Program-made: the position numbers and the translations under genes
Notes under the pieces: generated by a model
What the model was told of the DNA's origin: nothing
Seen by the model: the letters and a program-made list of their open reading frames with translations, nothing else
Database searches by the model: none
In this document: piece by piece, positions 558 through 45,502 of the stretch
Layout: each line of letters begins with the position of its first letter
How positions within the stretch are numbered: position 1 is the first letter of the stretch
Source: Candidatus Parcubacteria bacterium
GTDB lineage: Bacteria; Patescibacteriota; Minisyncoccia; Phycocordibacterales; CAIZLB01
Direction of reading: 5' to 3'
Length of the DNA: 64,000 bases
Assembly (NCBI GenBank): GCA_043760135.1
Contig: JAYUPL010000007.1
Coordinates: 106 to 64,105 of the forward strand

Positions 558-3431
558 ATGCAACCAAATAATTTTGAACAACTAGATAATGAAAACAAAC
601 AGTCACATAATTCTGAACCGTCTTCAGATAATAAAAATTTTACATCTCTTGAAGAAGAACTTGAATATTTACGAGGAGAAGTAAAAAAGAATCAAGAAAA
701 AAAATCAGAACAATTTGAACAAGATCAGATTATCACTCAAGAAATAAAAACATATCATCAAGAAACAGGTAGAGATTTATTACATGAATCATATATTCAA
801 CCTGAAAACAAAAGCGCCGAGATAGTTCTTAACCTTGCCCCTGAAAACCATGATAAAAATATGGAAGAGTATTGGACATTGATGAATAAGAACGGTATTT
901 ATAACACTTTAAACATAATAAAAAACACAGGTAATCCTCACCTAGAAGATGATTTCCATAGATTTTTAGTTGAGTATATAAAGGCTGGCTTGAAGATTCA
1001 AAATTTGAAAGAAAATGATCCAATTGATAGAAGTATTAAACAAACCCTATATCAAGTATCATTACCTGATTTTCAAGAAAAAGAGGGAGCACAAAAACCA
1101 TTAAAAGAACTTTTGTCAGTGATGGAGCAGTTTTATCTTGGTATGAGCTCTATTGCAGAAGCTGGTAAAAAATTTGCAGATAGTAGAAATAACATGACTA
1201 TAGAGCTTGCTATAGCTGAAGGAAGTGAAGAATTTATTTTCTATGTATCAGTGCCAAATGATAAAAATGATTTATTTGAAAAGCATATACTGTCAGTATT
1301 TCCAGAAGCTAAGATAGAAATAGAACACAATGACTATAATATATTTGATGAAGATGGTGTATCGCTGGCATCAGTTGCATCATTTACAAAACAAGATATC
1401 TATCCAATCAAAACATATGAAGAATTTGATGCTGACCCTATTAATGTTATTTTAAACTCATTATCAAAAATACAAAAAAATGGAGAAGGTGCGTGTATTC
1501 AGATTGTATTTAATAATGTTGGTGACTATTATCACAAGCTTTATAGAACAGCACTAGACAATATTCTCAAAGGAGAATCTCTTAAAAAAACAACGGATAT
1601 TCGACATACTATCTGGGGTCAATTTTCAAAAGTTGCTGGTGAAATGGGAAAAGAAATAGTGGATGGTACATTGTCTTATGATGATAGTAAAAAAGATGAG
1701 ACAAAAGAAAAATATATAGATCAGATTGCAGTTGAGCAAATCAAACATAAAATATCATCTCCGATAATAGAAACAAACATAAGACTTATTGCCTCCGCTA
1801 AAGATCGCATGCGCGCAGAAAATATTTTGTCTGATCTTGAGTCTTCGTTTAATCAGTTTACTAATGCTCTTGGAAATAGTTTTAAATGGGGTAGAGTAAA
1901 GGATAATCAACTCAAAGATTTATTTTATAAATTCACATTCCGTCTTTTTGACAAAGATCAAATATTACCAGTTTCTATTAAAGAAATTGCCACAGTGATG
2001 CATTTTCCAATGACTACCCAGTCAAACTTTTCTCCTCAGTTGAAACAATCAACTGCAGCAACAGCACCAGCACCACTGGATATTCCTCGAAAAGGTGATG
2101 GGGTTCTTATCGGTAAAAATGTTCATAGAAATGTTGAGCAAGATATTTATATGTCAGCTGAAGATAGGGCACGTCACATGTATGTGATTGGACAGACTGG
2201 TGTAGGTAAGTCGAGTATTTTAAAAAACCTTATCATACAAGATATTAAAAATGGTGAGGGTGTCTGTTTTATAGACCCTCATGGAAATGATGTGCAGGAT
2301 ATATTATCTCAAATTCCAAAAGAGAGATATGATGATGTGATTTATTTTGATCCAAGTCATACTGATCGTCCGATGGCTTTGAACATGCTCGAATACGATA
2401 CTTCAAATCCAGAACAAAAAACGTTTGTGGTAAACGAGCTGTTTAGTATTTTCCAAAAACTTTACGGCGCCAACCCAGAATCTATGGGACCGATGTTTGA
2501 GCAATATTTTAGAAATGCCACCATGCTCGTTATGGAGGATCCTGAATCAGGTTGTACCATGCTTGATATCTCTCGTGTTATGGCAGTGAAAAGTTTCCGT
2601 GATATGAAGATCGCTCATTGTAAAAACCCAATTGTAAAGCAATTCTGGACTGAGATTGCTGAGAAAACTTCGGGAGAATCAGGTTTAGCAAACATGATTC
2701 CATACATCACCTCAAAATTTGATGTCTTTTCATCAAACGAAATTATGCGCCCTATTATTGCTCAGGAAAAATCTTCTTTTAATTTCCGAGAAATAATGGA
2801 TACTAAAAAAATCTTACTGGTCAATTTGTCAAAAGGAAGATTGGGGGATATTAACGCCAACCTTATCGGTTTGATTATTGTTGGTAAAATTTTGATGGCC
2901 GCCTTATCGAGAGTAGATTCTTTTGGAAAAGATATGAATCCGTTTTATCTATATATTGATGAATTCCAAAACATAACTACTCCATCAATATCAACTATTT
3001 TGTCTGAAGCTAGAAAATATAAATTATCACTCACTATGGCGCATCAATTCATCGCACAGCTTGATGACAAAATAAAAGCTTCTGTGTTTGGAAACGTGGG
3101 GAATATGGTTGTCTACAGGACGGGTGCAGAAGATGCAGAATTTTTACAAAAACAATTCGAACCAGTTTTTGTGGCTAAAGATATTATGAATATTGATAAC
3201 TTCAATGCGTATATAAAGATGCTTTCACATGGTAAACCAACAAAACCATTTAATGTACGTATTATGCCTCAGGAGAAGGGAAATATGGCCATCGTGGACT
3301 CGTTGAAGGAGTTGTCATACCTCAAGTATGGAAAGGATAAAGACACTGTTATAGAAGAAATTGATGCGAAGTTTGCGAGTGATAAACCAAAACCAAAGCC
3401 TGTGGCAGATTTGAGTGCGTTTGGGTTGTAG
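558..3431 (+). CDS. VirD4/TraG/TraD-family type IV coupling-protein-like ATPase with ~480-aa hydrophilic N-terminal region of unknown function
   Basis: C-terminal half has Walker A 'GQTGVGKSS', 'FIDPHGND', Walker B 'LYIDEFQN' and 'TMAHQFIAQL' motifs typical of TrwB/TraG/VirD4; no N-terminal TM helices seen. Confidence 0.6.
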   Translation: MQPNNFEQLDNENKQSHNSEPSSDNKNFTSLEEELEYLRGEVKKNQEKKSEQFEQDQIITQEIKTYHQETGRDLLHESYIQPENKSAEIVLNLAPENHDKNMEEYWTLMNKNGIYNTLNIIKNTGNPHLEDDFHRFLVEYIKAGLKIQNLKENDPIDRSIKQTLYQVSLPDFQEKEGAQKPLKELLSVMEQFYLGMSSIAEAGKKFADSRNNMTIELAIAEGSEEFIFYVSVPNDKNDLFEKHILSVFPEAKIEIEHNDYNIFDEDGVSLASVASFTKQDIYPIKTYEEFDADPINVILNSLSKIQKNGEGACIQIVFNNVGDYYHKLYRTALDNILKGESLKKTTDIRHTIWGQFSKVAGEMGKEIVDGTLSYDDSKKDETKEKYIDQIAVEQIKHKISSPIIETNIRLIASAKDRMRAENILSDLESSFNQFTNALGNSFKWGRVKDNQLKDLFYKFTFRLFDKDQILPVSIKEIATVMHFPMTTQSNFSPQLKQSTAATAPAPLDIPRKGDGVLIGKNVHRNVEQDIYMSAEDRARHMYVIGQTGVGKSSILKNLIIQDIKNGEGVCFIDPHGNDVQDILSQIPKERYDDVIYFDPSHTDRPMALNMLEYDTSNPEQKTFVVNELFSIFQKLYGANPESMGPMFEQYFRNATMLVMEDPESGCTMLDISRVMAVKSFRDMKIAHCKNPIVKQFWTEIAEKTSGESGLANMIPYITSKFDVFSSNEIMRPIIAQEKSSFNFREIMDTKKILLVNLSKGRLGDINANLIGLIIVGKILMAALSRVDSFGKDMNPFYLYIDEFQNITTPSISTILSEARKYKLSLTMAHQFIAQLDDKIKASVFGNVGNMVVYRTGAEDAEFLQKQFEPVFVAKDIMNIDNFNAYIKMLSHGKPTKPFNVRIMPQEKGNMAIVDSLKELSYLKYGKDKDTVIEEIDAKFASDKPKPKPVADLSAFGL

Positions 3432-3472: not shown

Positions 3473-3721
3473 ATTTGACAATAAGGCTTGCTACAACTAT
3501 ACTAAAATCAGTTTTGAGACTTTAAAACTTCTCTAAGTGCAGAAATTCGGCTACTGCCACCTACTTCGTAAGAAGTTGTTGAGATGGGGATTACGTCGTT
3601 CCCTAGAGAAGTTTTAAGTTCTTAAGATAAATTTGACACTCAGATATTGATCATGATACATTTAAATTACTACTAATGACGCTAGATACCTTCTCTAGTT
3701 GGCTCACTGCCTCGATTGGTA

Positions 3722-4207
3722 CTATAGGCATACGGAAGGAACCCTACTTACAACGTTTCCTCTACCGAGGAGGCGTTTTAAGTTTTTCTCATTTAAAGAC
3801 CTAGTTTCAAAATAGGTAACAATGTAAAAACCGTTATCTCTGTTTGCTGCTAAGACTAAATAATTATTAGAATTTGGTACTAACTTTATAATATTAATTC
3901 TATCTACATTTTTATCAAAATTTAAAATAAGGTATTCCCACTTATGAGTGTTAATTATAATATTTTCAGCGCAGATGGGGCCGTGGTCAGATTCTATTTT
4001 GTCTACAATTTCTCTAGATAAGTGTAATGGTCTTTCTTTATTATCAAAGGATAAGTTACTGGATAGATAGCCGATTGTCTCTAGATTACTTTTATAACTT
4101 AAAAGCCTTTTTAGTTTTTTATTGTATCTTTCTTGCTTATTAGTTAAGTTAAATATTTGCTTCGATATAAATGCTGATTTTTTAAATTTTTGATTTTTAT
4201 TTTCCAT
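3722..4207 (-). CDS. hypothetical protein, copy A of a three-member ~160-aa paralogous family
   Basis: Aligns over full length with ORFs 35203-35730 and 44322-44801 (motifs 'RPLxLSRxIxxKIxxDHGxIC', 'NGFYIVTxFE', 'KNLKRLLGRGNV'). Confidence 0.5.
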   Translation of the reverse strand: MENKNQKFKKSAFISKQIFNLTNKQERYNKKLKRLLSYKSNLETIGYLSSNLSFDNKERPLHLSREIVDKIESDHGPICAENIIINTHKWEYLILNFDKNVDRINIIKLVPNSNNYLVLAANRDNGFYIVTYFETRSLNEKNLKRLLGRGNVVSRVPSVCL

Positions 4208-4269
4208 CCACCAATACTACCAATATCAACATCAAGAAAACTTAAAGAAATTCCAAAGAAAAGATCAAG

Positions 4270-4848
4270 TTAAGATAAAGATTTAAACAACTCCTCAATA
4301 CCAATTTTTTCTCGTGCAGAATATTTTATTATTTTCTTACCCTCAAAAGCTTTTTCAATAACCTCCATACTTTTAAAAACTTCGTTTTGTTTTAACTTAT
4401 CAAATTTGTTAGCAATAATAACAATGTCTTGCTTATGCTCTGTTAAAAAATTATAAAAATGAATATCATCAACCGTAGGTCCAACTTTTGCATCTATTAT
4501 TAAAACTACTTTTTTTGTATTTGTTTTTTCACTTATAAAATACCATTCTATAATACGAGCAATCTTATCTCTTTGGACATGTGACCCTCTGGCAAATCCA
4601 TATCCAGGTAGGTCGACTAAATAAAATTCTTCATTGATCAAATAAAAATTAGCCTCAGCTGTAAAGCCTGGGGTAGAGGATGATCGTGCAAGTTTGTTTC
4701 TGCCAACAAGAGTATTTATCACAGAAGACTTACCTACGTTTGACCTTCCGATGAAGGCTATTTCAGGCAACTCGATTGTTGGAAGACCTGTGTCATGGAC
4801 TGCTCCTTTTACAAATATAGATGATTTTATTAATTGAGGGTTGGTCAT
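4270..4848 (-). CDS. engB: ribosome biogenesis GTP-binding protein YihA/EngB
   Basis: G1 'GRSNVGKSS', 'DLPGYGFA'; the track ORF extends over tRNA-Leu so the start was moved to the internal Met ('MTNPQLIK'). Confidence 0.8.
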   Translation of the reverse strand: MTNPQLIKSSIFVKGAVHDTGLPTIELPEIAFIGRSNVGKSSVINTLVGRNKLARSSSTPGFTAEANFYLINEEFYLVDLPGYGFARGSHVQRDKIARIIEWYFISEKTNTKKVVLIIDAKVGPTVDDIHFYNFLTEHKQDIVIIANKFDKLKQNEVFKSMEVIEKAFEGKKIIKYSAREKIGIEELFKSLS

Positions 4849-9903: not shown

Positions 9904-10590
9904 ATGAATAACAAAAAAATAATAGTATCAATATTGGTATTAATCGTCTTAATTTTATCAATAGTTTTATTTAACAAAACCAGTCCACGAGTGATAGAAA
10001 ATGATGAGGTTGCTACAACAACAACTTCATCATCTACAACAGATGGTAAAATGGTCGTTGATAGTAGTATCAAACCAGCGACTGTTGTAAATGAGTCAAG
10101 TGCTAATTATGAATATACAAATGGAGTGTATTGGGGAATTATTAAAAAATCAGCAATTGCTAATGGGAAATTAATCTTAACTATAGATTTCCTACAATCA
10201 TTCGCTACACAAAAAGAAACAGTTCTTGCTGCGATACAAGATGATGTATGTAAATTTCCATCAAACATGGGTATAAAAAATAAACAAGAATTCGTAGCTA
10301 AAGTTATGACTCTAACAGAAGGTGAGATCGGTGCGTTTATTGCCAAGACAAACTGTTTCCCAGATGGAATAACATATTACAGAAATGCTAGTGCTCAATT
10401 GATAAGTAAAGATGTAGCTGCAAATTTCATTGCATTTTATCCAGCATATCCATCAACTACTATAACAAATACTGGAAACATGAATACATTAAACACTTTT
10501 ATAAACACACAAGGTCCATCAAATCCAAAATGGCAAGTTACTATAAAAGACAATAAAGTTGTTGGGTTAAATCAACCGTATACAAAGTAA
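9904..10590 (+). CDS. membrane-anchored hypothetical protein (N-terminal TM, Thr/Ser-rich linker)
   Basis: ORF with hydrophobic N-terminus 'IIVSILVLIVLILSIVLF'. Confidence 0.4.
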   Translation: MNNKKIIVSILVLIVLILSIVLFNKTSPRVIENDEVATTTTSSSTTDGKMVVDSSIKPATVVNESSANYEYTNGVYWGIIKKSAIANGKLILTIDFLQSFATQKETVLAAIQDDVCKFPSNMGIKNKQEFVAKVMTLTEGEIGAFIAKTNCFPDGITYYRNASAQLISKDVAANFIAFYPAYPSTTITNTGNMNTLNTFINTQGPSNPKWQVTIKDNKVVGLNQPYTK

Positions 10591-10696
10591 TCTTCAGATT
10601 CATTAATTAAGAAAGAAAAATACTGCTCATTTGGGTAGTTTTTTTCTTGAGAGTTTCTTTATGGGAACTTTAGCTGTCTTTTATTATCATTGAAGA

Positions 10697-13000
10697 ATGA
10701 AAAAATATTTTGATCAGTGGAATAATAAAAAGAAATATATAGATAAAACTCCTAAAGATTTGATATTTAATGAAGGAGAGATTTGGTGGTCACATTTCGG
10801 TATAAATGTAGGCGAAGAGGCTTATGGGAAAGGTGGGTATTTTAGGAGACCTGTAGTTGTCTTAAAAAAGATATCACAAAACTCTTGCATAGTTGTGCCG
10901 ACAACCACAAAAATAAAAGAAGGTGAAAATTACTTCAAATTCACAACAAATGATCTAGAAAGAAGAGCTATGCTCTATCAGATAAAGTTTATTTCTGCAA
11001 AAAGATTGTATGTGAGAGAATCTGAGATGGAAAAAGAAGATTTCCTGAAATTAAAAAAATCCCTAGCAAACTTGCTAGAAATCTCTTCATGGTCACCGAG
11101 CGGACAAAAAGGACAATGCTCGGATCAGTGGGTTTCCCCTGGTATGAATCTATTTTATCAAACTCAAAATAATTGTCAAATTTCCAAGTTTTCACGTTCT
11201 GGAATCTGTGCTAAACTTCCATTTATGCAAACATCATTAGAACATAAAAGACATTCCTTGGCGCATGTATTAGCTGGAGCCATATTAAAATTATATCCAG
11301 ATGCTTTGATGACGATTGGTCCTGCTGTTGAAAATGGTTTTTATTATGATATTGATTTTCCAAGCGGATCACCAAAAGAGGAAGACTTTGAGAAAATTCA
11401 AAATGAGATGAAAAATGTTTTAAAAGCCTGGTCAACTTCAGAGCAGAGTTTTGTTCAACAAAAAGTTTCTAAAGAAGAGGCAGAAACTATTTTCAAAAAT
11501 AATTCATACAAGTTGGAACTGATCCAAGGTGTTGTTGATCGAGGTGAAGAAATAACTTTGTATGTTTCTGGGAAAGGTACAGAGTACGAATTTACTGATC
11601 TTTGTCGTGGGGGACATGTTGAGAACACAAAAGAGATTGATGAAGGTTCTTTTGCACTAGATAAGATTGCTGGAGCGTACTGGAGAGGTGATGAGAAAAA
11701 TAAGATGCTTGTGCGAATCTATGGACTTGCATTCGAAACAAAAGAAGAGTTGGATTTATTTATTCATAATAGAGAAGAGGCGAAGAAGAGGGATCATAGA
11801 AAATTAGGAAAGGAATTGAAGCTGTTTACTATTTCAGATTTAGTTGGTTCTGGGCTTCCTTTGTTTCAACCAAAGGGTGCCGTCTTGAGAGTGGAGCTAG
11901 AAAAATACTTGTGGTCAATGCATAAAGATAAGGGTTATCAAAGAGTTTGGACGCCACATCTAGCTAAAGCACAACTGTATGAAATATCAGGTCATGGACA
12001 ACATTACCTTGATGATATGTTTGCAGTGCATGGAGGAACTTCAAAAGAAGATTTTTATTTGAAGCCAATGAATTGTCCTCATCACTACCAATTATTTTTG
12101 GATAATCAATTCTCATATAGGGATATGCCAATCAAATATTTTGAACCGGCAACAATCTATCGTGATGAAAAAACAGGACAATTAGCAGGTCTAACTCGTG
12201 TTCGTTCAATCACTCAAGATGATGGGCATTTATTTTGTCGTTCAACTCAAATCAAGGAAGAGGTAAATATTATTGTAGACATTATCAAGCAATTCTATAC
12301 AACTATGAATATGATTGATGGGTATTGGGTACGACTTTCAACTCGAGGTGATGATAAGGATGTGTATCTTGGGTCTGATGAAGTGTGGGAGACTGCTGAA
12401 AGTGCGTTGAAGGATATTTGTAACGAAAATAATTTACCATACAAAGAGGGTAAAAATGAGGCAGCTTTTTATGGTCCAAAACTGGACTTTATGTTTAAGG
12501 ATGCGATTGGAAGAGAATGGCAATTGGCAACAATCCAGCTTGATTTCAATGCACCAGAAAGATTCAATCTTTCTTTTGTAAATGAAAAAGGTGAAGATGA
12601 AAGACCTGTGGTTATTCACCGTGCCATCTCTGGATCAATAGAAAGATTCTTAGGTGTTGCTATTGAGCACTTTGCTGGAGCGTTTCCGCTATGGCTTTCA
12701 CCTGTTCAATTAAAAATTGTTCCAATCGGTGAAAGACAAATAGACTTTGCACATGATTTATTTAAGAAAATAATGAAGACTGATATAAGAGTTGAGATCG
12801 ATCAAAGTAGTGAAGGACTTGGTAAAAAAGTTCGTGCATCTAAAGTTGAGAAAATTCCATACCTAGTTGTGGTAGGAGATAAAGAAATGGAATCAAATAC
12901 ATTTTCTCTTGAAGGAAGAAATGATGAGAAGATTACAGGGTTAAGTTATGATGACATGGTTAAGTTTTTACAAGATAAAATAGACAGTAAGGCTCTATAA
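10697..13000 (+). CDS. thrS: threonyl-tRNA synthetase carrying an in-frame N-terminal MazF/PemK-like domain (no TGS domain)
   Basis: Residues ~180-767 match ThrRS (editing-domain 'HSLAHVLAGAI...IGPAVENGFYYDIDFP', 'DHRKLGKEL', 'KPMNCPHHYQLF', 'RVRSITQDDGHLFC'). Residues ~1-130 match PemK/MazF ('GEIWWSHFGINVGEEAYGKGGYFRRPVVVLK') and are a paralogue of ORF 45002-45400. No stop codon lies between the two parts. Confidence 0.8.
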   Translation: MKKYFDQWNNKKKYIDKTPKDLIFNEGEIWWSHFGINVGEEAYGKGGYFRRPVVVLKKISQNSCIVVPTTTKIKEGENYFKFTTNDLERRAMLYQIKFISAKRLYVRESEMEKEDFLKLKKSLANLLEISSWSPSGQKGQCSDQWVSPGMNLFYQTQNNCQISKFSRSGICAKLPFMQTSLEHKRHSLAHVLAGAILKLYPDALMTIGPAVENGFYYDIDFPSGSPKEEDFEKIQNEMKNVLKAWSTSEQSFVQQKVSKEEAETIFKNNSYKLELIQGVVDRGEEITLYVSGKGTEYEFTDLCRGGHVENTKEIDEGSFALDKIAGAYWRGDEKNKMLVRIYGLAFETKEELDLFIHNREEAKKRDHRKLGKELKLFTISDLVGSGLPLFQPKGAVLRVELEKYLWSMHKDKGYQRVWTPHLAKAQLYEISGHGQHYLDDMFAVHGGTSKEDFYLKPMNCPHHYQLFLDNQFSYRDMPIKYFEPATIYRDEKTGQLAGLTRVRSITQDDGHLFCRSTQIKEEVNIIVDIIKQFYTTMNMIDGYWVRLSTRGDDKDVYLGSDEVWETAESALKDICNENNLPYKEGKNEAAFYGPKLDFMFKDAIGREWQLATIQLDFNAPERFNLSFVNEKGEDERPVVIHRAISGSIERFLGVAIEHFAGAFPLWLSPVQLKIVPIGERQIDFAHDLFKKIMKTDIRVEIDQSSEGLGKKVRASKVEKIPYLVVVGDKEMESNTFSLEGRNDEKITGLSYDDMVKFLQDKIDSKAL

Positions 13001-13050
13001 AAAAAAGACAGCCCGCCGAGAGATCGACAGGTGTTTTGATTGTGTTGAGG

Positions 13051-13218
13051 TTAATCGATGCCTACAGCTAGTTGCAGCCTGTCGACTTCTATTTTGGCCT
13101 CTTCGAGGGAAATGTTTTCCGGATCGATTCCTTCGATCTCGAGCATGGTAAGTCCTGTTGAATTGATTCTCAATTTTTGAACATAGGACTCGAATTCTCC
13201 AATTTCGTTGTGATTCAT
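13051..13218 (-). CDS. possible small acidic protein (55 aa) in a higher-G+C intergenic stretch
   Basis: Hand translation of the minus strand gives 'MNHNEIGEFESYVQKLRINSTGLTMLEIEGIDPENISLEEAKIEVDRLQLAVGID'; absent from the ORF track (<60 aa). Confidence 0.2.
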   Translation of the reverse strand: MNHNEIGEFESYVQKLRINSTGLTMLEIEGIDPENISLEEAKIEVDRLQLAVGID

Positions 13219-13305
13219 GATGGCGGTATTGATTAGTGGTATTACAGTACAGCATCAAAATACCATCATCATAAACAAAATACAATATGATATAATATCC
13301 TAACC

Positions 13306-13980
13306 ATGAAAACTTATACCATAGTCGGCAAGGATTCAAATCCTGTAGATAAAATCTTCCGAGAAAAAGGATATATTAGAAATGATGAAAATCCTGATTT
13401 TGTCATATCGTATGGAGGGGACGGTACGCTCTTAAAAAGTGAGCATCTCTATCCTGGTATTCCAAAATTATTTTTACGAAATAGTTTGATCGGTAATCTT
13501 GGATTTAAAGAAACCAATGAAGAAGTTCTGGAAAAGTTTTTTGCAGATGAACTTACAATAAAAAAATATTTCAAAATCGAAGCACAAATCAAAAATAAAA
13601 AAATAGTAGCAGTAAACGAATTTTCTCTGAAAAACACAAATCCAAGAAATAGTATACGATTTGATGTATGTGTAAATGATGAAAAGATCCTACATCGCAT
13701 TGTGGGGGATGGTTTGATTGCTGCAACTCCTATTGGATCAACTGGATATTATCGATCCATTACTCGCTCTACATTTGAGCTGGGGATCGGTATAGCATTT
13801 AATAATACAACTGAGCACTATAACCACATGGTTTTGAAAGAAGACTCTGTTATTAAGGTTGTGATATTGCGAGGTCCAGCTTTTTGTTATGTTGATAATC
13901 ATGATGAGGAAACTGTTCTTGAAGTAGATGATGAAATAGTGATACGAAAATCAGATCAGTTTTTGCAGATGTTTGCATAA
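13306..13980 (+). CDS. nadK: NAD(+) kinase
   Basis: 'YGGDGTLL' GGDG motif, 'DGLIAATPIGSTGY'. Confidence 0.8.
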   Translation: MKTYTIVGKDSNPVDKIFREKGYIRNDENPDFVISYGGDGTLLKSEHLYPGIPKLFLRNSLIGNLGFKETNEEVLEKFFADELTIKKYFKIEAQIKNKKIVAVNEFSLKNTNPRNSIRFDVCVNDEKILHRIVGDGLIAATPIGSTGYYRSITRSTFELGIGIAFNNTTEHYNHMVLKEDSVIKVVILRGPAFCYVDNHDEETVLEVDDEIVIRKSDQFLQMFA

Positions 13981-14024
13981 ATAAGTCAATAAACTCCAGT
14001 TGACAACTATGTTATACTACAAAT

Positions 14025-16715
14025 ATGCCCCCATTGAACAACTTTACAACACGTGCCAAAGAGGCTATACGTCGTGCACATGAACTTGCTATAGAACGTG
14101 GACAAACCAACGTTTCGCCTATGCATTTATTGGTTTCTTTGCTGACTCAGGAAGATTCTGTGGTTATTTCTATGCTTGAAAAACTCGATGTAGACTATAT
14201 ATTGATGACTGACAATGCCTTTGAAGCAATAGATAGTGATTCTTCTATCTCAAATACTCTTTCACCTGCCTATCAATTATTCTTAACTCCTGAGCTCATC
14301 ATTCTTATGGAAAATTCTGGAAAAGTAGCTGTTGAGGTAAAAGATAATTTTGTTTCAGTAGAGCACTTATTTATTGCATTTTTTGATACATTAAACCCAG
14401 CCAGAGAATTGATAGAAAAATTTAAAATTGATAAAGAAAAATGTGTATCAACTTTGGAATTTTTAAGATCTCAAAAAGATGTGAAAGGTGCCGAAGGTAC
14501 AAGTGAAGCTAAAAAATCAAAAGCACTTGCTAAATTTACAAGAAACTTAACTGCCCTTGCTCGCGATAATAAACTTGATCCAGTGATTGGTCGTGATTCT
14601 GAGATTGCGCGTGTTATTCAAATTCTCTCAAGAAGAACAAAAAATAATCCAATTCTACTTGGTGAAGCGGGAGTTGGTAAGACTGCAATTGTTGAAGGGT
14701 TGGCAAATCGCATTGCACTTGGTGATGTTCCGGAATCTTTGAAAAACAAAGAACTGCTTTCGCTTGATATGGGATCACTTGTTGCGGGCACAAAGTATCG
14801 TGGAGAGTTTGAGGACAGATTAAAAAATATTTTAAAAGAAATAGATAAGTCAGATGGAAAAGTTATTCTATTTATGGATGAGACTCACACTATTGTAGGG
14901 GCTGGAGGTGCTGAGGGGTCACTTGATGCTTCAAATATGTTGAAACCTGCGTTGGCTCGCGGTGAGTTGAAAGCAATTGGTGCGACGACTTTAAGAGAAT
15001 ATCAGAAACATATTGAAAAAGACCCTGCACTGCAAAGACGTTTTCAACCTGTATATGTTGAAGAGCCGTCCATTGAAGATGCTACTGCTATATTAAGAGG
15101 GTTAAAAGAAAAATATGAATTATTCCACGGTGTTCGCATCCTTGATGAAGCAATTGTTGCTGCGGTAACACTATCATCTCGCTACATTTCAGATAGACAA
15201 TTGCCAGATAAGGCTGTTGATCTTATTGATGAGGCTGCATCAACTTTGAAGATTTCTCTTGAAAATAAACCTCAAGTAATAGAAGAGGCTCACAGAAAGA
15301 TCTTGCGTCTTGAGATAGAAAAACAAGCACTCTCAAAAGATCCTGCTAATAAAGATATAAAAGACCGTATTAAAAATATTGAAAACAGTATAAAAGAAAT
15401 AAAAGATTCTATATCTGATGTTGAAGGTAAGTGGAATGTTGAAAAAGAGTTGATCACAGCAATCAAAGATTTAAAGAAAAATATTGAGTCACTTACTCAA
15501 GAATCAATCAAGGCTGAGGCTAAAGCTGACCTGGTGAAAGCGGCAGAGATTCGTTATGGAAAATTACCAATCATGGAAGCGGACTTGGAAAATAAAATCA
15601 AAAAACTTCGCAAGCTTGATACAACAAAAAGAATCCTAAAAGAGGAGATCAATGAGGCTGATATTGCCGCTGTTGTTTCTTCGTGGACCGGTATACCAGT
15701 ATCTCGCATGCTTGAAGAGGAGATGAAAAAACTTTCTCGTCTGGAAGAAGTGTTGAAGTCACAAGTGATAGGACAAGATGAAGCAGTTAAGAAAATATCA
15801 GATACGATCAAAAGATCTCGCGCCGGTATCCATGATCCATCACGTCCACTTGGTTCATTTATATTCCTGGGTCCAACTGGTGTAGGTAAAACTGAGCTTA
15901 CAAAGTCGTTGGCTAAGTTTATGTTCAATGATGACAAAGCCTTGATTCGTGTTGACATGTCAGAGTTTGCTGAGCGTCACACTGTTTCAAAATTGATCGG
16001 TGCACCACCAGGATATGTTGGGCACGAGGATTCAGGAACACTGATCGATAAAGTTAAACATCGTCCGTATTCAGTTATATTATTTGATGAGATTGAAAAA
16101 GCTCACCCTGAGATATTTAACATCTTGTTGCAAGTGTTGGATAACGGTCATTTAACAGATTCAAAAGGTAAGACCGTAAACTTTAAGAATACTATTATTA
16201 TCATGACATCAAATATTGGTGCTCAATATATAGATAGAATGCAAGGTATTGGATTTGCTTCATCAAATGATGATCAGGATATTTATGCAGGTATAAAAGA
16301 AAAAGTTATGTCATCATTGAAAGATTATTTTAAACCAGAGTTTTTGAATCGTCTTGATGAGATTATATTGTTCGATGTGTTGTCACATGAATCTATTAGA
16401 AAAATTGTTGATATTGAAGTTAATAAGGTCCAAGCAAGATTGCTTGAAAAAGATATTCATCTTATGTTTAGGGATGGAGTGTATGAATTATTAGCAAAGG
16501 AAGGATATAGTCCACAATACGGTGCTCGACCTTTGAGACGCCTTATTCAGTCTAAGGTTTTGACACCTTTGGCATCGATGATGATTGATAAAGGCTTGGT
16601 TGGAAATAGACAAGTTGTGATTGATGTTGATAAGAAAGGTGAATTGAGTTTTGAGGACAAACCTTTACAAGTTGCTGGGATGAAGATGAAGAGGACTAAA
16701 GTTGAGAAAAAGTAG
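14025..16715 (+). CDS. clpB: AAA+ chaperone ClpB (two ATPase domains, long middle coiled coil)
   Basis: Clp N-domain; '[18 protein letters not shown]' and '[15 protein letters not shown]'; ~120-aa coiled-coil M-domain. Confidence 0.9.
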
Positions 16716-18301: not shown

Positions 18302-18635
18302 AGCCTTTGGTTTTCACGTTGGTTTATAAGGGGTTTTTTGACTTTTCCTAAATTTGCTTGTCCTTTATGAACATATTTGAATAATCCCCATATAATCGCT
18401 TGACTTTGTTTATGTTTCGTATATAATAGACACCCATACGGAATAGAAATATAACTCTCGAATCCTTGATGGATTCAAGAAAAATTTCTAAAGAAATATA
18501 CTTTGAAAATAGAATAAAGATATACATACATCACAATAGATATGTAAGAACATTGTATTGATTTTGTACAATGAGCAAGAATTAATTTTAAAATTAATCA
18601 AATCCTTTCTTTTGTTCTGTTTGAGTTTTTTATTT

Positions 18636-20160
<1,525 letters not shown>

Positions 20161-35143: not shown

Positions 35144-35202
35144 ATTCAGGTTTTCTTTAGAACTTCTTAATCAAAACTTTACCACCTCTCTGGTAAAGTT
35201 TT

Positions 35203-35730
35203 TTGATGGAATACAGAAAACCTAAAAAATCACTTTTTATATCAAAACAAATTAGAAATTTAAATAGTGAGGAAAAGATATATCTCGAGAATTTAAAAAA
35301 AGTTTTAAACAAAGAAAGTGATATTGAAACCATTGGGAATATTCCGGGTTATTTATGTTTTGATAAAAAAGAAAGACCCTTAATTTTATCTCGAGAGATT
35401 GTCGATAAGATAGAAAATGATCATGGTTCAATTTGCTCTCAAAATATGATTATTAACATTTTTGAATGGGAATATGCAACTACTAATGTATTAGGTAATC
35501 CTGATAAAATAAATCTTATTAAAAATATACCCGATTCTGATAATTATCTCTTAGTGGCAGCTGTTAGGATTAATGGCTTTTTTGTACTTACTCATTTTGA
35601 AATTGAAGCTAAAAATGGTAACAATTTAAAACGCCTCCTCGACAGAGGGAGCGTTTTAAATAGGGTCTCTTCTATAGCCTGTACTACCAATCAAGACTTG
35701 AATTCAAGTCAATCTAGAGAAGTTGTCTAG
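35203..35730 (+). CDS. hypothetical protein, copy B of the ~160-aa paralogous family (C-terminally extended)
   Basis: Full-length alignment to copies A and C. Confidence 0.5.
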   Translation: MMEYRKPKKSLFISKQIRNLNSEEKIYLENLKKVLNKESDIETIGNIPGYLCFDKKERPLILSREIVDKIENDHGSICSQNMIINIFEWEYATTNVLGNPDKINLIKNIPDSDNYLLVAAVRINGFFVLTHFEIEAKNGNNLKRLLDRGSVLNRVSSIACTTNQDLNSSQSREVV

Positions 35731-35833
35731 CGTCAAAGGTAATGGTTGTATTTTAGCAAAAGTTTGATTTATGTCAAATAATACACAAGTATTTCCTTTT
35801 GACTTTTTACCTCAAATAATATAGGTTTTATAT

Positions 35834-43820: not shown

Positions 43821-44276
43821 ATGAATTACTGGCTCATGAAATCTGAAGGAGATTGCTATCCTATCGAACAACTTAAAAAAGATAAAGTCACTCCATGGGG
43901 CGGTGTGCGCAACTATCAAGCACGAAACTACATGAAAGAGATGGAAGTTGGAGATATGGTTTTATTCTATCATTCAAGTTCAAAACCCACTGGAGTATTT
44001 GGATTGGCAAAAGTTGTAAAAACTGCACATCCTGATCTGACCGCTTTTGATAAAAGAGATGATCATTATGATGAACGATCAACAGTAGAAAAACCCATCT
44101 GGGAATGTGTTGATGTACAGTATGTTTCAACATTTAAAGAACCTATCACATTAGATGAAATGAAAAGATATCGAGAGTTAAGCACAATGAAATTATTTCA
44201 AAAAGGATCAAGATTGTCAGTTATTCCAGTGACTGAGAAGGAGTACAATTTTATTGTTTCTTTGGGGAAAGTTTAG
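43821..44276 (+). CDS. EVE (PUA-like) domain protein
   Basis: 'MNYWLMKSEG...GGVRNYQARNYMKEMEVGDMVLFYHSS...GVFGLAKVV'. Confidence 0.7.
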   Translation: MNYWLMKSEGDCYPIEQLKKDKVTPWGGVRNYQARNYMKEMEVGDMVLFYHSSSKPTGVFGLAKVVKTAHPDLTAFDKRDDHYDERSTVEKPIWECVDVQYVSTFKEPITLDEMKRYRELSTMKLFQKGSRLSVIPVTEKEYNFIVSLGKV

Positions 44277-44321
44277 AATTTCTTTATGAGAACTTTATGT
44301 TGGTTTTGGTATTATTTTTGA

Positions 44322-44801
44322 ATGCTAATCGAAAAACCAAAAAAGCCTGCATTTATCCACGGACCTATCCTACCTCTGAATAAAAGAGAGGAGATGTACT
44401 TGTGGAAAATAAAAAATATTATCAAATATAAAAGCACTCATGAAAATATTGGGTATGTACCCGAATCTTTATCAAAGGACGCTAAAGTCAGACCCCTTAT
44501 TTTATCTCGAAGTATATTACATAAAATTCAATCTGATCATGGACATATTTGTCCAGAAAACATGATTATCAATGCACATCGGTGGGATTATATCGTTTCG
44601 TATCCATATAACAATGTAGACAAGATTGTGCTGGTAAAGAATATACCGAATAGTCGCAATTATTTTGTGTTAGCAGCTAACAGAAATAATGGTTTTTATA
44701 TTGTGACACATTTCGAAGTCGAAGCGATGACTGGAAAAAACTTAAAACGTCTCCTCGGTAGAGGAAACGTTTTAAGTAGGGGGCCTTCTATATGCCTATA
44801 G
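44322..44801 (+). CDS. hypothetical protein, copy C of the ~160-aa paralogous family
   Basis: Full-length alignment to copies A and B; 200 bp upstream of the MazF-like gene. Confidence 0.5.
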   Translation: MLIEKPKKPAFIHGPILPLNKREEMYLWKIKNIIKYKSTHENIGYVPESLSKDAKVRPLILSRSILHKIQSDHGHICPENMIINAHRWDYIVSYPYNNVDKIVLVKNIPNSRNYFVLAANRNNGFYIVTHFEVEAMTGKNLKRLLGRGNVLSRGPSICL

Positions 44802-45001
44802 TACCGATCTGAGACTTTTTCAAGTCAGTATGAGAAGGTGTCATGTGTCATCGGTAATGGTTGTATTATACGCTTGGGTAAACCAAAGTCAAATTGTAGA
44901 ATATTTTGATCATTTCAATGAAATATAATTTTATTTTTTCTTTGGTAAAACTTTAAAATCTCTTTATCAGAACTTTATCGGTATTTTTATAAAATTGATG
45001 G

Positions 45002-45400
45002 ATGAATAACAAAAACTATGATGAATGGAATATATTAAAGAAAAGAATAAATAAATTATATAAAACCAAACATCCAAAAATAAGAGAAGTTTGGTGGGTA
45101 AATATCGGTTTGAATATAGGCTCTGAAATATATGGAAAGGGTTCAAAATATTTAAGACCTGTATTGGTGTTAAAGGTAAATGATGAAAGTTTTTTAGGTA
45201 TACCATTATCATCAAAATTAAGGAAAAGCAAACAAAGATTCATTTTGAAAACAAATGATCAGAAGCTTCATTCCTTGGTTTTTAATCAAATTAAGATTTT
45301 GGACAACAGGAGATTGTTGAGTAAGAAGTATATTATTTCAAAAAATAAATTTAGGAAAATAATCCGTAAATTTAAAAATACGATAACCGTCAATGGTTAG
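45002..45400 (+). CDS. MazF/PemK-family toxin-like protein
   Basis: 'REVWWVNIGLNIGSEIYGKGSKYLRPVLVLK' matches the MazF/PemK core; paralogue of the ThrRS N-terminal domain. Confidence 0.65.
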   Translation: MNNKNYDEWNILKKRINKLYKTKHPKIREVWWVNIGLNIGSEIYGKGSKYLRPVLVLKVNDESFLGIPLSSKLRKSKQRFILKTNDQKLHSLVFNQIKILDNRRLLSKKYIISKNKFRKIIRKFKNTITVNG

Positions 45401-45502
45401 TTGACGGTTATCCGGCCCGAAGGCTGAGGAGCATAAGCTCAACTCGTACCTTCATTGTATCAAATTATCTTTTGCTGTCAAATTTGGTATAATACTCATC
45501 AT

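Follow-up and report, generated by a model that had tools for sequence, protein, structure and literature searches.

The known systems closest to the one analyzed here are the type I toxin-antitoxin (TA) pairs in which a convergent antisense RNA overlaps the 3' end of the toxin mRNA, namely txpA/RatA and bsrG/SR4 of B. subtilis and fst/RNAII of the E. faecalis par locus. In these systems a strong promoter drives the small RNA (sRNA) and a weaker one the toxin gene, no protein antitoxin is encoded and the genes occur in several copies. Type I toxins are membrane peptides of less than 60 amino acids (aa), a small-peptide rule to which the enzyme-type toxins of SymE/SymR and RalR/RalA are known exceptions. 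In the type III systems ToxIN, CptIN and TenpIN an endoribonuclease of ToxN/Kid-like fold is combined with a structured RNA encoded as a tandem-repeat array upstream of the toxin gene and on the same strand, again with no protein antitoxin, whereas the type II RNase toxins of the BECR/RelE and MazF classes are small metal-independent endoribonucleases with an adjacent gene for a protein antitoxin. Here we analyzed a family of ~160-aa proteins encoded three times in a stretch of 64,000 nucleotides (nt) from a Candidatus Parcubacteria bacterium (assembly GCA_043760135.1, contig JAYUPL010000007.1, positions 106 to 64,105), hereafter called the window and used for all coordinates. An earlier note on this DNA had proposed that the three genes and their conserved flanks represent an undescribed toxin, antitoxin or immunity family or a small mobile cassette. 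The reading that we favour, with a probability of roughly 55%, is that each copy is a compact type I-like TA cassette in which an RNase toxin is paired with a cis-antisense sRNA antitoxin.

The locus has in common with the type I pairs a convergent cis-encoded sRNA over the 3' end of the toxin mRNA, here predicted, as well as the strong sRNA promoter opposed to a weaker toxin promoter, the lack of a protein antitoxin and the multiplicity of copies. It departs from them in its toxin, a predicted ~160-aa soluble alpha/beta RNase of the BECR fold, and in two other predicted features, the position of the sRNA terminator inside the toxin open reading frame (ORF) and a leaderless mRNA. Its host belongs to the Patescibacteria, whereas a 2025 paper (PMC12390103) states that type I systems were known only from Proteobacteria, Firmicutes and Tenericutes. 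The endoribonuclease toxin (predicted here) and the structured RNA recall type III systems, but the RNA lies downstream of the toxin gene on the opposite strand, is single-copy in the window rather than arrayed in tandem, and accompanies a toxin of BECR fold. Like the type II RNase toxins the protein is predicted to be a small metal-independent endoribonuclease, and its genes have a promoter motif in common with two MazF-like genes, yet no protein antitoxin gene is adjacent at any of the 34 non-redundant loci that we compared. The literature searched contained no report of a TA system with an RNA antitoxin from the Candidate Phyla Radiation/Patescibacteria. Taken singly, the components (a BECR RNase, a TA arrangement with antisense RNA) are of known types; their combination, the host phylum and the dual coding of a terminator within an ORF are new.

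Predicted antisense RNA genes at the 3' ends of the three copies

The three genes are copy A at 3722-4207 on the minus strand (161 aa), copy B at 35206-35730 on the plus strand (174 aa) and copy C at 44322-44801 on the plus strand (159 aa). For copy B the ATG at 35206 is a more likely start than the TTG at 35203 with which the ORF listing begins. Alignment of the proteins gave 52-57% identity from end to end with 65 invariant columns and contained all the motifs quoted in the earlier note, whose claim of paralogy over the whole length is borne out. When the genes were aligned with their flanks, DNA similarity extended from ~55-75 nt 5' of the ATG to ~90 nt past the stop codon of copy C; the conserved 3' flank described before is real, although longer than the ~60 nt it was then given. 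The similarity between copies and the conservation of the flanks are not due to chance. The family forms ~80 clusters in public data (90% identity), none of them annotated, and a single metagenome-assembled genome (MAG) often holds several members. The flanks are kept across different MAGs, and the family shows a narrow and patchy distribution with multiple copies.

Comparison across genomes shows conservation at the nucleotide level over the final ~70 nt of the ORF and a further ~90 nt. The encoded tails after residue ~155 differ by 1-nt insertions or deletions, reading GPSICL and a stop in some members and VSSVACTT and onwards in others, and these frame-shifted C-termini indicate that there is no coding selection beyond residue ~155. 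In copy B a 1-nt deletion shifts the frame of the tail and lengthens the C-terminus through the RNA gene. The promoter ranked first by the pattern scanner is, in each of the three copies, on the strand opposite to the gene, with a terminator on that same strand. For copy C the promoter (44865-44892, minus strand, TTGACT-16-TATAAT) matches the consensus at 11 of 12 positions and would drive a ~125-nt sRNA at 44734-44858, also on the minus strand, with a presumed transcription start site at about 44858. This sRNA overlaps the last 68 nt of ORF C and continues over the 57 nt past the stop codon. It is predicted to fold into helices H0, H1, H2 and H3 followed by a terminator, a 17-bp hairpin at 44740-44777 with a U-run at 44739-44734, the plus strand of which encodes NLKRLLGRGNVLS. 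For copy B the promoter lies at 35750-35777 on the minus strand (TTGACA-16-TAAAAT with an upstream TG, 11/12 matches) and the sRNA at 35617-35743 on the same strand, its terminator hairpin occupying 35624-35661. For copy A the corresponding features are on the plus strand: a promoter at 3633-3662 (TTGACA-18-TACATT, upstream TG, 10/12 matches), an sRNA at 3669-3787, a terminator hairpin at 3747-3782 and a U-run at 3783-3787. The distance from stop codon to promoter is ~60-90 nt in copies A and C; in copy B the promoter follows closely on the frameshift-extended stop codon. Out of the 34 loci, 25 have a promoter-like site with at least 10 of 12 matches at a nearly fixed offset, with a spacer of 15-18 nt (mostly 16) whose sequence varies freely among loci. 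An opposite-strand promoter with such a free spacer explains the 'GGTAATGGTTGTATT' pattern recorded in the earlier note and the terminal GTCAA.

A covariance model built from 20 sequences matched the window only at 3667-3787 on the plus strand (130 bits) and at 44736-44860 and 35620-35745 on the minus strand, the last with 116 bits, the lowest of the three scores; there were no orphan sRNA copies elsewhere in the window, and in the other loci the model matched only the 3' ends of family genes and always in antisense. The predicted RNA is closed by helix H0 and contains hairpin H1, whose CCUUCU loop is conserved, the variable hairpin H2, helix H3 around AGAAGG, and the terminator. In the RNA alignment 93% of the cells were paired, and compensatory changes were found in 15 of the 28 pairs, compared with 7.0+-1.6 in shuffled alignments (none of 500 reached the observed value) and with at most 5 in slid controls. 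Hairpin H2 is present in 19 of the 21 sequences, with unrelated primary sequences. The strand could be assigned from 60 G-U cells, with which the antisense strand has 93.0% of its cells paired, compared with 84.7% for the ORF strand, and from the U-run, which follows the hairpin on the antisense strand only; single-sequence folding energies did not discriminate between strands. The motifs UGACGC, CCUUCU and AGAAGG are conserved as single-stranded elements, and loop-loop pairing between CCUUC and GAAGG is possible, with covariation in one clade only. Rfam at the gathering threshold gave only rRNA and tRNAs in the window, and a search of 44200-45050 on both strands at E<=10 returned nothing credible. 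The earlier note had treated the 3' flank as a possible transcribed 3' untranslated region (UTR) or cassette end. The opposite-strand promoter, the terminator and the covariation point elsewhere, and we predict from the sequence that the flank constitutes a separate gene for an antisense sRNA, equipped with a promoter and a terminator of its own.

The terminator lies within the last ~20 codons of the ORF, where the codons for the invariant peptide L-K-x-L-L correspond, on the complementary strand, to the U-tract and a GAGGAG stem. The Lys is encoded by AAA in 34 of 34 loci and the two Leu by CTC in 33 and 29 of them, respectively, a codon that accounts for 6.2% of Leu codons in the other genes of the window. 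Embedding of the terminator in the ORF thus forces both the invariant LKRLL peptide and the rare CTC codons, a clear case of dual coding in which an intrinsic terminator on one strand fixes peptide and codons on the other.

Other explanations of the 3' region were considered and rejected. A conserved peptide encoded in the sRNA is not consistent with the start codon, which is not kept, nor with ORFs of 8 aa in copy C and 42 aa in copy A. A structure of the sense-strand 3' UTR or a sense terminator would have no U-run on its own strand, and the G-U pairs favour the antisense one. We also dropped the idea that the H1 loop mimics the anti-Shine-Dalgarno sequence of 16S rRNA, since the 3' end of the host 16S rRNA lacks CCUCC.

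Predicted fold and relatives of the protein

Pfam, NCBIfam and PADLOC gave no significant match to the three window proteins, and the sole recurring Pfam signal for them, below threshold, was PBECR2 (PF18810). In a family alignment of 58 sequences 17 members matched PBECR2 below threshold, with E-values from 3e-4 up to the reporting cut-off of 1, as did several more distant relatives; the matches shown residue by residue cover the C-terminal strands. The statement of the earlier note that no named domain could be recognized is right as far as matches above threshold are concerned, but it misses a sub-threshold relative, PBECR2, a module of phage polyvalent proteins. An AlphaFold (AF2) model of a family protein, with a predicted local distance difference test score of 89 and a predicted template modelling score of 0.84, has an N-terminal helix, two strands, helices 63-73 and 78-86, four antiparallel strands, a helix at 138-145 and a short strand. 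Its core fits the colicin-like BECR scheme of pre-alpha, alpha and beta1-4, with one His in pre-alpha and another on beta4. H73 of the DHG motif closes helix 63-73, K68 lies five residues earlier, and T129-H130 of the THFE motif are on the strand 125-135. H73, T129 and H130 are invariant or nearly so in the 58 sequences and in all three window copies, and they occupy the positions given for the active sites of PBECR and colicin D-like domains; the PBECR signature is a His in an N-terminal helix combined with a C-terminal Thr/Ser (Iyer et al. 2017, PMC5512222). The candidate catalytic residues of copy C are K68, H73, R121, T129, H130 and E132. We assign the protein to a divergent PBECR2-like domain, a predicted endoribonuclease of BECR fold and colicin D type, whose putative catalytic set is kept in all three copies. 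As regards the earlier suggestion of a toxin, antitoxin or immunity protein, this predicted fold and the conserved His and Thr-His set favour a toxin, and the antitoxin and immunity readings found no support.

Foldseek against viral models (BFVD) returned phage polyvalent proteins as top matches, while Foldseek against the PDB gave only noise from NTF2-like and other curved-sheet proteins and the sequence profile search of the PDB gave only noise such as a 14-3-3 protein at E 0.06, with no solved structure for the family. An exhaustive profile search with the 58-sequence alignment collected 108 cluster representatives, many of which are domains inside proteins of 750-3163 aa. These include giants of the phage polyvalent type defined by Iyer et al. 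2017 (PMC5512222), 1400-2060 aa long, in which the RNase-like domain stands beside ART-PolyVal (P0083, P0113 and P0114) or LPD38 (P0122). P0083 is encoded at 10001-16183 of locus L042, a phage-like contig of ~47 kb, where its neighbours are a gene for a peptidoglycan-binding protein and long ORFs of structural type. The four proteins are probably injected phage effectors, and the phages behind them possibly infect Patescibacteria. Among viral contigs (IMG/VR) we found a single relative, the C-terminal domain of a 762-aa ORF free of Pfam domains (L041, 2231-4519); a weak match to the antisense RNA covariance model was seen at the 3' end of this ORF.

The family and PBECR2 or the other PBECR domains (PMC5512222) are alike in their predicted BECR fold, in the His on the pre-alpha helix and the Thr/His on the last core strand, in the extra strands ahead of the pre-alpha helix, and in occurring both solo and inside giant phage proteins with ART-PolyVal or LPD38. 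In contrast to PBECR2, the family scores under the Pfam gathering threshold, its solo genes occur in several copies on chromosomes of Patescibacteria and are coupled to a predicted antisense sRNA, and the protein has an added C-terminal helix and strand that are dual-coded with the RNA terminator. Two other assignments were tried and discarded: a PD-(D/E)xK nuclease motif around D100-K106, whose pattern does not fit, and an IS200-like element with an HUH Y1 transposase and hairpin ends, suggested by the size of the unit, which lacks support from any HUH motif, invariant Tyr or Pfam match.

Upstream motif and MazF-like genes

In all three copies, and at most homologous loci, an extended -10 element TGnTAnnnT ends exactly 6 nt before the ATG. 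In copy C (promoter region 44244-44321, plus strand) it reads TGgTATTAT at 44307-44315 and follows ~22-nt repeats (AAnTTTAnnnTTTCTTTnnnn; 44247-44297). The promoter of copy B (35164-35205, plus strand) combines the upstream motif with TGgTAAAGT and has its -10 hexamer at 35194-35199, and that of copy A (4208-4262, minus strand) combines it with TGgTAGTAT, the -10 hexamer being at 4219-4214. No Shine-Dalgarno sequence precedes the family genes. This absence, taken with the position of the -10 element, predicts a leaderless mRNA, and the toxin-gene mRNA is probably leaderless. Among 44 other genes of the window 13 have a -10-like hexamer 5-8 nt before the start and 4 a Shine-Dalgarno-like motif, so read the host would seem to translate its mRNAs largely in a leaderless or Shine-Dalgarno-independent manner. 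The 16S rRNA gene is at 18629-20150, and its 3' tail (20130-20150) reads GGAUUUAUUCAAG, with no CCUCC anti-Shine-Dalgarno sequence.

The upstream motif, scanned as the regular expression TTCTT[AT]A-N3-7-AxTTTA-N9-14-TAnnnT-N5-8-ATG, has exactly five sites in the 64 kb: before copies A, B and C, before the MazF-like gene 45002-45400 and before the MazF-like N-terminus of ORF 10697-13000. This agrees with the earlier observation of a promoter-like motif common to the three copies and two MazF-like genes. The motif has a ~22-nt periodicity (TTTCTTTAT ... AACTTTA) and is conserved across genomes. It is made of 2-3 direct repeats of a unit of ~22 nt, or two helical turns, and the arrays before the five toxin-like genes are at 44247-44297, 44927-44977, 35150-35181, 4230-4285 and 10640-10672. 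In this it resembles an array of operators, or a special class of promoter for toxin cassettes.

The MazF/PemK identity of both genes was confirmed (PF02452, E 9e-8 and 6e-8), and neither has a MazE partner. The first begins 200 bp after the stop codon of copy C, and copies A and B are solo, as stated before. The second is the N-terminal 130 aa of ORF 10697-13000 (plus strand), which continues in frame into a threonyl-tRNA synthetase. At both genes the opposite strand carries a hairpin and T-run overlapping the toxin domain at its end. For the gene at 45002-45400 the antisense layout spans 45372-45481 on the minus strand: a TG-extended promoter TTGACA-16-TACAAT (45481-45454, 11/12 matches) and a 12-bp terminator hairpin (45412-45382) with its T-run define a predicted antisense RNA of ~75 nt (45447-45372) that overlaps the MazF stop codon. 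For ORF 10697-13000 it spans 11050-11179 on the minus strand, with a TG-extended promoter TTGACA-16-TAAAAT (11179-11152, 11/12 matches) and, at about 11075-11050, the hairpin CTAGCAAGTTTGCTAG with T7 behind it. The predicted MazF antisense RNAs are unrelated in sequence to the family sRNA and the covariance model has no match there. The whole of ORF 10697-13000 encodes 767 aa, with the MazF/PemK domain at aa 26-126, and the consensus promoter and hairpin with T7 lie between its MazF and threonyl-tRNA synthetase parts; the fusion may result from read-through over an antisense RNA gene that is by chance free of stop codons. The close relative L003 has no MazF ORF but keeps a similar promoter, RNA and terminator on the opposite strand, and L004 and L016 have neither the ORF nor these elements.

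Genomic setting and competing readings

ORFs within 2 kb on either side of the family genes were clustered at the 34 loci. No protein family occurred at more than 4 of them, the few recurrences being orthologous synteny, and there was no synteny beyond close relatives. The neighbouring genes differ at every locus, among them an EVE-domain gene with dnaX, a VirD4-like gene with engB, the end of a ribosomal protein operon, a methyltransferase gene with SpoU, and pilB/pilC. Each cassette is ~640 bp long, with two convergent genes, the second being the predicted sRNA, and is too short to hold a second ORF for a protein antitoxin. The absence of any recurrent protein family leaves the RNA as the only conserved partner. 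One clade (L019 5001-5666, L020, L032 and L034) is inserted in a type IV pilus operon between pilB (T2SSE) and pilC (T2SSF) and overlaps the end of pilB; translation through the RNA region gives its proteins a long extension at the C-terminus. L032, L034 and the protein P0058 have a tandem second copy of the RNA/terminator element.

In the TA cassette that we favour, the first gene, with its extended -10 promoter and probably leaderless mRNA, would encode a metal-independent BECR-fold endoribonuclease of ~155 aa (PBECR2-like, colicin D type), and a near-consensus sigma-70 promoter on the opposite strand would drive a structured sRNA of ~125 nt ending inside the first gene. By analogy with txpA/RatA, bsrG/SR4 and fst/RNAII, abundant sRNA would pair with the 3' part of the toxin mRNA and bring about its degradation or silencing. 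If the supply of sRNA falls, the RNase would be made and would cut cellular or phage RNA, resulting in growth arrest that could serve as addiction or as abortive-infection defence. We infer that the sRNA is transcribed, that the protein is toxic and has RNase activity, and that base pairing neutralizes it. Several points weigh against this reading. Classical type I toxins are small hydrophobic peptides and not 160-aa enzymes, the gathering score of PBECR2 (27.1 bits) was never reached (the best match had 21 bits, E 3e-4), and the pilB-pilC clade, without a promoter of its own and with a weaker antisense promoter, fits a domesticated non-toxic role. In addition, the conservation of both primary sequence and fold of the RNA exceeds what a plain cis-antisense RNA needs, which hints at another or an additional mode of action and leads us to keep a type III-like mode open.

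This last point also speaks for an sRNA that binds the RNase itself as an inhibitor or pseudo-substrate, as a protein-binding antitoxin or type I/III hybrid in which the antisense overlap is secondary or additional. The single-stranded motifs and four covarying helices have been kept while the protein diverged to 40-55% identity, loop-loop pairing is possible and L032 and L034 carry tandem second RNA elements. We nonetheless consider this unlikely: in known type III systems the RNA is a repeat array that precedes the toxin gene and shares its strand, part of the sequence conservation is accounted for by the dual coding and by promoter and terminator, and the kissing-loop support comes from a single clade. 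That the family is no TA system at all, and consists of non-lethal, housekeeping-like paralogous RNases for RNA processing or defence whose dosage is tuned by the cis-antisense RNA, would accord with the location of its genes among core genes and of one clade within the pilus operon without its own promoter, and a non-toxic regulatory RNase is possible, especially for that clade. For the family as a whole we regard it as quite unlikely in view of the narrow, patchy and multi-copy distribution, the kinship to effectors in phage polyvalent proteins, the promoter motif and architecture in common with MazF toxins and the lack of synteny beyond close relatives. The flanks might, finally, be recombination sites (attC-like or terminal hairpins) of a small mobile cassette of the integron or insertion-sequence type rather than expression signals. 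A multi-copy unit in different intergenic sites, hairpins in the 3' flank, a 10-nt direct repeat around cassette A and a neighbouring MazF cassette that is present or absent among close relatives could all be read in this way. Against it, the cassette holds no integrase or transposase, Pfam detected no recombinase or HUH domain in it, the family has no invariant Tyr or Ser, no terminal inverted repeats were found, and target duplications were not consistent, with none at copies B and C; moreover the fixed-spacing promoters, the terminator with its U-run and the strand-specific G-U pairs fully explain the features of the flanks. A mobile cassette, a possibility raised in the earlier note, is in the strict sense highly improbable. 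An attC-like site was also rejected specifically, as it has no R'/R'' cores and its 'variable hairpin + GTCAA' is the promoter spacer and -35 box read backwards.

Going beyond the type I-like cassette, one may imagine that this lineage has replaced protein antitoxins by structured cis-antisense sRNAs for RNase toxins of both BECR and MazF types, using one portable cassette (shared operator-like promoter motif, leaderless toxin mRNA, convergent sRNA with its terminator in the C-terminal codons of the toxin) and an sRNA that acts on toxin protein as well as mRNA; it would then be a new hybrid TA class and not a type I variant, a proposal that taken as a whole we find doubtful though possible. 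If the favoured TA cassette is confirmed, the RNA would be a family absent from Rfam and the first candidate RNA antitoxin of a TA system in this phylum, and a BECR-fold RNase of the phage polyvalent repertoire, probably together with MazF, would be controllable by antisense RNA rather than by a protein antitoxin. 'Orphan' toxin genes of reduced genomes could likewise have RNA partners that protein-centred surveys have missed. The ~80 clusters of hypothetical proteins gain a predicted functional assignment, and the small size of the cassette (~640 bp) makes it experimentally tractable.

A few observations concern the immediate surroundings of the copies in the window. Copy A adjoins a gene for a 957-aa protein (558-3431, plus strand) with coupling domains of the TraG/VirD4 type (TraG-D_C, TrwB_AAD_bind), and an EVE-domain protein is encoded at 43821-44276, directly upstream of copy C. 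Cassette A is flanked by the perfect 10-nt direct repeat TTAAGATAAA at 3622-3631 and 4270-4279. The downstream copy of this repeat sits in sequence resembling the upstream promoter motif (TTTATCTTAAGAACTTAAAAC), and the repeat may be a remnant of a neighbouring cassette or a footprint of recombination between promoter motifs.

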